Shown piece by piece: positions 11,402 to 12,361 of a DNA stretch of 14,589 nt. Each line of letters begins with the position of its first letter. Within the stretch, counting starts at the first letter, position 1. The notes under the pieces were generated by a model that saw only the letters and a program-made list of their open reading frames with translations, was not told where the DNA came from and did not search any database. The position numbers and the translations under genes are program-made. The stretch lies in the IMG/VR virus record IMGVR_UViG_2609459801_000008; one strand, written 5' to 3'. The stretch is from a virus (Duplodnaviria > Heunggongvirae > Uroviricota > Caudoviricetes).

Positions 11402-12361
11402 TTAATTTACCATCAGTCTTAGAGCCAGTTCGTCCGGATAGGGATCGAAGTAATTCTGTGTAAGCAAGTAATCATTAGGATACTCACCCAGATAATGCTT
11501 CAGCAGAGTCAACGGCGCAAGAAGAGGTAATGTGCCAGAACGATAGTTAAGTATAACCTCGCTCAACTCTTTACGCTGGCGTGTACTTAAGTAGTTACTA
11601 AAATACCCCTGTATATGCATCAGCACATTCGTGTGATTTTTACGTGATGCAGGTTTTCTGAGAATCGCCATCAGCTTATCACGATACACCTCAAAGTATG
11701 ATTCAAGGTCCGCCCACTCGTGTATTGCAGCCACAAATGGTCCCATATCTTTATAGCCTGCCTGACTATGCGCCAACAACTGAAGCTTATAACGACTATG
11801 AAAAGCTAATAACTCTCTTCTTGATAATTTCTCCTTGTAAAGGTGATTGAGCTCATGCAAAGCAAAAACTCTTTCAACAAAATTCTCACGAAGCACTGGA
11901 TCATGTAATCGCCCATCCTCTTCAACCGGTAGCCAGGAAAACTTTTCCATCAAAGTGCTCGTAAATAGTCCCACTCCATCTTTACGACCTCGATTACCAT
12001 TTTCATCATAGACACGCACGCGCTCCATGCCACAGCTGGGAGATTTAGCACAAACCACAAACCCCGATACATCCTTTAATTTGTCCATATAAGAACGACT
12101 AAACTCTGTCATTCTCTCTGTCACATCCTCATTCTGGTCGTGGCTGAAACACATCCGTATATTTCCTTGCATCGAGCGCACAAGACGTAGAGCAGGACGC
12201 GGAACTGGCAGCCCTATAGCCATTTCCGGACATACTGGTCTGAATGTTACCCATTCCACTAATTTGTCCATTAAAAAGTCAGCTCTTTTGTGACCACCAT
12301 CAAAACGAACAGCAGAACCGGCCAAACAACCGCTGATTCCAATCACAGGTTTTTTTATCAT
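11402..12361 (-). CDS. DUF523/DUF1722 fusion protein (TudS-like Fe-S desulfidase-type N-domain, YbgA-like C-domain)
   Basis: 319 aa. N-terminus MIKKPVIGISGCLAG…PVCPE…CAKSPSCG has three or four spaced Cys as in DUF523 [4Fe-4S] proteins; the C-terminal half is helical. Strong SD (GGGGGAG) before ATG at 12361. Family call from memory of motifs. Confidence 0.7.
   Translation of the reverse strand: MIKKPVIGISGCLAGSAVRFDGGHKRADFLMDKLVEWVTFRPVCPEMAIGLPVPRPALRLVRSMQGNIRMCFSHDQNEDVTERMTEFSRSYMDKLKDVSGFVVCAKSPSCGMERVRVYDENGNRGRKDGVGLFTSTLMEKFSWLPVEEDGRLHDPVLRENFVERVFALHELNHLYKEKLSRRELLAFHSRYKLQLLAHSQAGYKDMGPFVAAIHEWADLESYFEVYRDKLMAILRKPASRKNHTNVLMHIQGYFSNYLSTRQRKELSEVILNYRSGTLPLLAPLTLLKHYLGEYPNDYLLTQNYFDPYPDELALRLMVN

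Follow-up and report, generated by a model that had tools for sequence, protein, structure and literature searches.

A predicted RudS-type tRNA 4-thiouridine desulfidase between Q and the lysis genes of Escherichia coli lambdoid prophages

Fusions of a TudS domain to a DUF1722 domain were named RudS by Jamontas et al. (Nucleic Acids Res 2024; PMC11417400), who described them as [4Fe-4S] desulfidases converting 4-thiouridine (s4U) in tRNA to uridine. The biochemically characterised reference enzyme is RudS_KT (PP_0741) of Pseudomonas putida KT2440, another TudS–DUF1722 fusion: the purified protein bound tRNA and removed ~80–95% of its s4U in vitro, the substitutions E51M, R60M, S111M, and S113M rendered it inactive, and activity was lost in most single Cys-to-Ala substitutions of its cluster cysteines (PMC11417400). 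DUF1722 acts in RudS as a tRNA anticodon-arm binding domain and was required for tRNA binding by RudS_KT, the overexpression of which reduced the UVA growth delay from ~105 to ~60 min (PMC11417400). Every RudS tested lowered the s4U content of E. coli tRNA 4.7- to 26-fold on overexpression, as measured by LC-MS, and neither stand-alone TudS nor YbgA altered it (PMC11417400). One of the six enzymes assayed, RudS_vir, is encoded by a phage, namely as gp66 (H3V29_gp66) of Escherichia phage 1H12 (NC_049947); it was among the RudS that lowered tRNA s4U, with a desulfidation lower than expected from its protein level (PMC11417400). E. coli was described in the same study as being without RudS (PMC11417400). 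Beyond this 2024 paper and the reviews citing it, our literature search found no report on a prophage-specific role of DUF1722 or RudS proteins.

Identity of the prophage-encoded fusion protein

We analyzed a stretch of 14,589 nucleotides of viral DNA (IMG/VR record IMGVR_UViG_2609459801_000008), hereafter “the window”, which represents an E. coli lambdoid prophage and is 99.9% identical to strain MB30 across positions 9957–14589. It contains a rudS-like gene, hereafter rudS, with the following features:

12365–12371, minus strand: Shine-Dalgarno motif GGGGGAG, 3 nt from the rudS ATG, read from the sequence
11402–12361, minus strand: rudS-like coding sequence, 319 codons for 319 aa, ATG start and TAA stop, encoding a TudS/DUF523–DUF1722 fusion
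11915–12343, minus strand: TudS (2-thiouracil desulfurase) catalytic domain, residues 7–149; PF04463 (formerly DUF523), E 4.5e-40
11435–11788, minus strand: DUF1722 domain, residues 192–309; PF08349, E 5.8e-41, covering the full profile (1–117 of 117)

The original prediction had read this ORF as a DUF523/DUF1722 fusion, and since both Pfam matches are strong and fall on a single ORF, the fusion is real and well above chance. Profile alignment to the sequence of the TudS crystal structure 6Z92 covered residues 3–148 (E 5.9e-32), while the NCBIfam YbgA model NF007549 covered only the C-terminal 156 residues (160–315; E 1.4e-56), at 190.8 bits against a cut-off of 237. Alignment to the TudS and YbgA families, proposed earlier as a check, thus placed each half of the protein as anticipated, but with a YbgA score under the cut-off and with one of the three cysteines named in the prediction, Cys104, out of register (see below). 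At 319 aa and with a fused DUF1722 domain, the protein departs from the single-domain TudS architecture of ~150–166 aa; nor does it belong to the YbgA equivalog, given its sub-cut-off score and a composition that is not DUF1722 alone. E. coli K-12 YbgA (b0707), encoded upstream of the photolyase gene phr, is by comparison a stand-alone DUF1722 protein without the catalytic TudS domain. The RefSeq name of the window protein, “YbgA family protein”, results from the match of its C-terminal part to NF007549, and phrog_3275, which the protein matches over its full length (755 bits), is labeled as unknown function in PHROGs; both labels can now be refined to RudS, with predicted ligands Cys12, Cys44, and Cys110. 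An AlphaFold2 prediction based on 15 aligned sequences (the window protein and 14 homologues of 70–76% identity) yielded a model too poor to lend structural support (mean pLDDT 47, pTM 0.34), and scans of the window against Rfam and for tRNAs returned no matches.

The record of phage 1H12 was recovered by tblastn of a phage collection, and its RudS_vir is identical to the window protein at 298 of 319 positions (93.4%), without gaps. The two share their length, Cys12, Cys44, and Cys110, the catalytic residues, and a genomic slot with its neighbors. They differ by 21 substitutions in the window allele, none at a catalytic or ligand position (7.8% nucleotide divergence), and in context, RudS_vir being encoded in a complete phage genome and the window gene in a defective prophage at the Rac locus. 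Given the published assays of this 93%-identical protein, the window gene very probably encodes a RudS-type tRNA s4U desulfidase operating by the family mechanism, and the window allele would be expected to be active as RudS_vir is. This fits the earlier suggestion that the protein could modulate thiolated tRNA, which matches the published s4U-to-U desulfidation by RudS_vir (PMC11417400). The window enzyme is therefore of an already known kind, its biochemical identity being settled by published work, and adds no new system. Among other relatives, RudS_ST (ORF319, STM1389) of Salmonella Typhimurium LT2 and the chromosomal RudS proteins from Enterobacter, Citrobacter, Klebsiella, and Kluyvera have the same length (319 aa), two domains, and Cys12/44/110 numbering; identity to the window protein is 70–76% for enterobacterial orthologues in general.

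Cluster ligands, catalytic residues, and substrate

Residues relevant to cluster binding and catalysis are encoded as follows:

12326–12328, minus strand: codon of Cys12, the predicted first [4Fe-4S] ligand (TudS Cys10), conserved without exception across 70 RudS orthologues and the stand-alone TudS-like proteins
12224–12232, minus strand: Cys44-Pro45-Glu46, comprising the predicted second cluster ligand and the catalytic Glu and matching TudS Cys43-Pro44-Glu45
12050–12052, minus strand: codon of Cys104, the residue named in the original prediction; aligned with TudS Lys98 and non-homologous to a TudS ligand
12032–12043, minus strand: Ser107-Pro108-Ser109-Cys110 (codons TCT CCC AGC TGT), two catalytic Ser and the predicted third ligand, equivalent to TudS Ser101-Pro-Ser103-Cys104

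The window protein has cysteines at positions 12, 44, 71, 104, and 110, and a TudS-like triad of Cys12, Cys44, and Cys104 had been proposed. The first two members stand, as they align with TudS Cys10 and Cys43, whereas Cys104 aligns with Lys98 and is replaced as third ligand by Cys110. A single-sequence PDB search and a profile search with close homologues both aligned only residues 6–67 to TudS, leaving the third cysteine outside, and this cysteine could be placed once two stand-alone TudS-like sequences had joined the profile used in the PDB search. In the resulting alignment, C10, C43-P-E45, and S101-P-S103-C104 of 6Z92 correspond to C12, C44-P-E46, and S107-P-S109-C110 of the window protein, and K98 to C104. 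We also aligned two phage RudS N-terminal domains and two enterobacterial RudS with two stand-alone TudS-like sequences, one from an Enterococcus phage contig and one from Pseudomonas phage Y10. Columns invariant across all six include C12, C44-P45-E46, R55, and S107-P108-S109-C110-G111, while the Cys104 column holds Lys in both stand-alone proteins. Across 70 orthologues of 50–76% identity, Cys12, Cys44, and Cys110 are invariant, and E46, R55, S107, and S109, all present in the window protein, are 98–100% conserved; Cys104 is likewise invariant in these 70 gammaproteobacterial RudS. Since the 6Z92 alignment, the TudS ligands, and the residues given for RudS_vir (Cys12/Cys44/Cys110; Table 1 of PMC11417400) all agree, the third cluster ligand is, by homology, Cys110, and the number 104 seems to have been carried over from TudS numbering. 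Binding of a [4Fe-4S] cluster by the window protein is predicted from these ligands.

Residues E51, R60, S111, S113, and C114 of RudS_KT, which mutation shows to be essential, correspond by constant offset to E46, R55, S107, S109, and C110 of the window protein, and the tRNA-binding residues of RudS_KT, e.g., S243/R244, would map to S239/R240 by offset alone. TudS (6Z92/6Z96) likewise has a homologous catalytic domain in which the three Cys, the Glu, and both Ser are shared, but it lacks DUF1722, prefers 4-thio-UMP or thiouracil, and carries Lys at the position of Cys104. By analogy with these enzymes, Cys12, Cys44, and Cys110 in the TudS domain of the window protein would ligate a [4Fe-4S] cluster whose fourth iron stays available for the sulfur of s4U, and Glu46, oriented by Arg55 together with Ser107 and Ser109, would activate a water molecule so that sulfur is replaced by oxygen. 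The DUF1722 domain would dock the tRNA by its anticodon arm, allowing s4U at position 8 (or 9) to reach the active site, for a net conversion of tRNA s4U to U with release of sulfide.

A different substrate range is conceivable, in which the protein would salvage free 4-thiouracil, 4-thio-UMP, or 4-thio-UTP from tRNA turnover, in the manner of TudS, instead of acting on intact tRNA. The catalytic domain is indeed homologous to TudS, whose preferred substrate is 4-thio-UMP, and RudS_vir gave the shortest lag on 4-thiouracil among the RudS tested in a uracil-auxotroph assay (PMC11417400), so that a side activity on free nucleobases or nucleotides is possible. As the main function, however, we consider salvage quite improbable: no RudS rescued growth as TudS did (PMC11417400), every RudS, RudS_vir included, lowered the tRNA s4U that stand-alone TudS left unchanged, and the DUF1722 domain, needed for tRNA binding in RudS_KT, is intact and highly conserved. 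As for 2-thiouracil, which had been proposed as an assay substrate, none of the RudS variants tested enabled growth on it and s2C levels were unchanged (PMC11417400), and it is thus not an expected substrate of the window protein.

It had also been suggested that the protein might interact with sulfur-based DNA modification (phosphorothioation of the Dnd/Ssp type), for instance as an anti-defense factor. Nothing beyond the word “sulfur” connects the two, and we regard such a link as extremely improbable. TudS/RudS chemistry acts at a free iron on the C4 sulfur of the uracil base and not on the phosphate backbone, and the close orthologue acts on tRNA. PADLOC returned no match for any of the three proteins submitted (the RudS-like protein, a neighboring lipocalin, and an AraC-like regulator), and no dnd- or ssp-type gene came up in the scanned ORFs of the window; the window does encode a ParB_N protein and a TET-associated-type glycosyltransferase, but both are 4 kb distant and have no connection to sulfur. 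A role in anti-phage defense or DNA phosphorothioation was hence rejected, based on the lack of PADLOC matches and on the unfit chemistry.

Genomic setting, distribution, and origin of the module

The genes and sites framing rudS are the following:

13234–13626, minus strand: gene of antiterminator Q, preceding the cargo module; PF06530, E 2.5e-51
13113–13134, minus strand: GC-rich hairpin with T-run, located ~100 nt downstream from Q, a candidate for the late-leader terminator tR', from a consensus scan
12554–13078, plus strand: blc-like outer-membrane lipocalin gene; PF08212, E 7.2e-44; NCBIfam Blc subfamily, 316 bits against a cut-off of 267
10321–10908, minus strand: AraC-family regulator gene, downstream of rudS; PF12833/PF00165; truncated/frameshifted, 195 aa against 243 aa in MB30
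9918–10133, minus strand: holin gene, start of the lysis cassette and end of the cargo slot; ORF annotated as class II holin / EssD in matching genomes

Along the minus strand, the order is rusA, ylcG, Q, the GC-rich hairpin, the blc-like gene (on the opposite strand), rudS, the AraC-family regulator, holin, lysozyme, Rz, and trkG. This order places rudS between Q and the lysis cassette and hence in the exchangeable Q-to-lysis cargo slot, in line with the earlier description of the gene as prophage cargo. In the consensus scan, the hairpin was the only terminator-like site between Q and holin; by analogy with the organization of the lambda genome, it would correspond to a tR'-like terminator, with rudS located downstream of it. 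The blc-like gene is divergent from rudS, with a 192-bp intergenic region between the two. The AraC-like gene, which might encode an acid-resistance regulator of the PatE/PsrA type, carries two frameshifting 1-bp homopolymer deletions relative to MB30, at 10928 and 10970, and the match of its product to phrog_1450 begins at profile position 63. A related prophage at the Rac locus carries a different cargo in the slot between Q and holin, namely a TolA C-terminal-domain protein.

The presence of such an enzyme in a prophage had been called unusual, but the gene instead belongs to a common and conserved lambdoid module. It was detected in 1136 of 5426 complete E. coli genomes, nearly always on the chromosome, with at least 80% of the gene retained in 1064 of them, and relatives of the window protein occur in 145 IMG/VR stretches. 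The description of E. coli as being without RudS is thus true for K-12 and for BL21, which has only a 147-bp rudS remnant, while about one-fifth of complete E. coli genomes carry a prophage copy. In all 80 copies retrieved from the 145 IMG/VR stretches (98–100% protein identity), the 319-aa ORF is intact and no key residue is missing, and blc and rudS are spaced 192–193 bp apart. The order Q–blc–rudS–AraC–holin is shared by 1H12 and nearly all of these 80 loci, the exceptions being flanks missing at contig ends and two loci without an AraC match.

This conservation bears on whether the window copy is merely silent baggage of a decaying prophage. The window prophage is defective, having lost terminase, portal, and the greater part of the capsid gene, and this makes a role in the lytic cycle impossible in the window's host; in addition, the adjacent AraC-like gene bears its two frameshifting deletions, and no promoter rises above background. 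Decay is however seen in the neighbors and not in rudS itself, which retains an intact ORF, a strong Shine-Dalgarno motif, and all catalytic residues. Comparison of the window and 1H12 alleles (dN 0.032, dS 0.29, dN/dS 0.11) indicates that rudS is clearly under purifying selection, and this signal, along with the intact IMG/VR copies and the 1064 largely complete E. coli copies, makes the baggage explanation very unlikely.

Chromosomal RudS orthologues of 50–76% identity are widespread in Enterobacterales and Photobacterium, and their neighborhoods hint at the origin of the module. In Enterobacter, Leclercia, and Huaxiibacter, rudS has upstream of it a divergently oriented blc homologue that shares 79–82% identity with that of the prophage, with an MlrA-like MerR regulator and a transthyretin-like gene between the two in the Enterobacter locus examined, whereas blc and rudS of Kluyvera cryocrescens are immediate divergent neighbors separated by 112 bp, a phage-like arrangement. 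The Citrobacter rudS is the last gene of a cluster that also comprises genes for SDR, amine oxidase, DUF1365, CFA synthase, DUF2878, and DUF3833 proteins. A 175-aa Citrobacter protein without Pfam domains, encoded two genes upstream of rudS, was considered as a possible relative of the prophage lipocalin and found to be unrelated. Prophage rudS has an AraC-like gene downstream, and neither the MlrA-like and transthyretin-like neighbors nor those of the Citrobacter cluster. Because the divergent pair is chromosomal in Enterobacter and Kluyvera, it seems that blc and rudS were acquired by the phage as a pair from the chromosome of an enterobacterium, and that the MerR regulator was lost by the phage or never present. 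The capture is not recent, as synonymous sites are saturated relative to the chromosomal copies. The two phage alleles share a conserved blc–rudS intergenic region, which could not be aligned to that of Kluyvera.

Expression and possible benefits

Two sets of results bear on expression of the prophage gene. First, RudS_KT is encoded in a light-inducible operon with LitR (a B12-dependent MerR regulator) and photolyase, and an association with such light-related genes (MerR/LitR, photolyase) is frequent among RudS without being a defining trait. It is found beside the Enterobacter orthologue, but window rudS has no such neighbor: no MerR or photolyase gene was detected in the window or in the 28.6-kb prophage region of MB30. 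Since both the MerR/LitR-type regulators and photolyase are missing, light-responsive expression should not be assumed. Second, promoter-like matches (13) were not enriched over shuffled sequence (11.6 ± 3.1 expected), hence no promoter was assigned. Transcription of rudS may thus start from its own intergenic promoter in the lysogen, arise from Q-antiterminated late transcription, or both, and both the timing of expression and the benefit to lysogen or phage are inferred.

The s4U at position 8 of tRNA is a UVA chromophore that cross-links to C13, leading to uncharged tRNA, ppGpp accumulation, and growth delay. As this s4U8–C13 cross-link drives the arrest of translation under UVA, a lower s4U content should shorten it, and UVA tolerance is the most likely benefit of rudS to the phage or lysogen. 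Under lysogenic conversion, rudS would be expressed in the lysogen and shorten its UVA growth delay. Another reading, which we consider unlikely although less so than the alternatives weighed above, is that RudS is carried for the phage itself and made with the late genes at induction to erase s4U from host tRNA. Sunlight or UV is a natural trigger of SOS induction, and with rudS located downstream of Q and the tR'-like terminator, its product could then prevent UVA cross-linking, tRNA uncharging, and a ppGpp-mediated stringent shut-down of late protein synthesis. If true, this would mean that the phage edits the tRNA epitranscriptome of its host at the time of induction.

The milder version, lysogenic conversion to UVA tolerance, would concern the ~20% of E. 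coli that carry the module, in which prophage rudS could cause differences between strains in tRNA s4U, UVA growth delay, and photo-inactivation, e.g., during solar water disinfection. Temperate E. coli phages would thereby keep a tRNA s4U eraser under purifying selection in the Q-to-lysis slot, together with a lipocalin that seems to stem from the same chromosomal neighborhood.

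Conserved cysteine and scattered copies of rudS

Cys104, a fourth conserved cysteine of RudS, lies six residues ahead of the cluster ligand and is invariant across 70 gammaproteobacterial RudS sequences, whereas TudS has Lys (K98) at this position, as do stand-alone TudS-like proteins.

12050-12052, minus strand: Cys104 codon of rudS

Outside the window, E. coli BL21 (H60, NZ_CP053601.1 1558651-1558797) carries a 147-bp remnant of the rudS 5' end, annotated as a "2-thiouracil desulfurase family protein", and published RudS assays used BL21(DE3), of the same lineage, as host (PMC11417400). 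A further copy was found on a 3209-bp contig of a "Candidatus Nanosynbacter" metagenome-assembled genome (L108, JARKOR010000151.1) together with E. coli prophage genes. Relative to the E. coli prophage, its rudS is 94% identical (residues 80-319), its AraC-like gene 99%, its holin 100% and its lysozyme 94%; the sequence almost certainly comes from E. coli through mis-binning or contamination.

Proposed acquisition of the cargo genes

Chromosomal neighborhoods were compared by gene order with the prophage.

L095 2021-4960 and L105 3352-4960: Enterobacter and Kluyvera chromosomal rudS loci

In Enterobacter, the order is blc (on the opposite strand), an MlrA-like MerR regulator, a transthyretin-like protein, and rudS. 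Kluyvera cryocrescens has a directly divergent blc-rudS pair, matching the prophage arrangement. The comparison suggests that the prophage acquired the two genes jointly. Base composition is consistent with separately acquired cargo, with low-GC patches at 7365-8840 (32-40%, around trkG) and at 10500-11500 (31-34%, around and upstream of the AraC-like gene) compared to 43-50% elsewhere.

10321-11052, minus strand: truncated AraC-family regulator gene, downstream of rudS

Compared to strain MB30, this regulator gene lacks one base in each of two homopolymers, an A8 run at 10928 and a T6 run at 10970, and its open reading frame is shortened from 243 aa to 195 aa, although both deletions could instead stem from homopolymer sequencing errors. 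Among NCBIfam models, the closest to the AraC-like protein were YdeO, HilD, and GadX, every score falling far under the cut-off. It may be a candidate member of the PatE/PsrA-type prophage AraC-like acid-resistance regulators.

A defective prophage at the Rac locus

The prophage, located at the Rac locus (ompN, pinR, tfaR, ydaY, trkG), is defective. It lacks the terminase, portal, and capsid genes that MB30 has, and comparison with matches L001 (1-6553) and L168 revealed a shortened TET-associated-type glycosyltransferase gene ("GREB1-related") abutting tail genes (~5350-6464). In a genome sharing the same junction, PGAP annotated a capsid-gene remnant adjoining the shortened glycosyltransferase gene.

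5724-7227, minus strand: ParB_N/Srx-domain protein (263 aa) and overlapping TAGT-family glycosyltransferase

Positioned between trkG and the morphogenesis genes, this looks like a putative DNA-modification-type gene pair. The glycosyltransferase was assigned to PF20691 and to phrog_842, labeled "beta-glucosyl-HMC-alpha-glucosyltransferase", and the ParB_N part of the 263-aa protein also matched the N-terminus of a PADLOC type II methyltransferase model.
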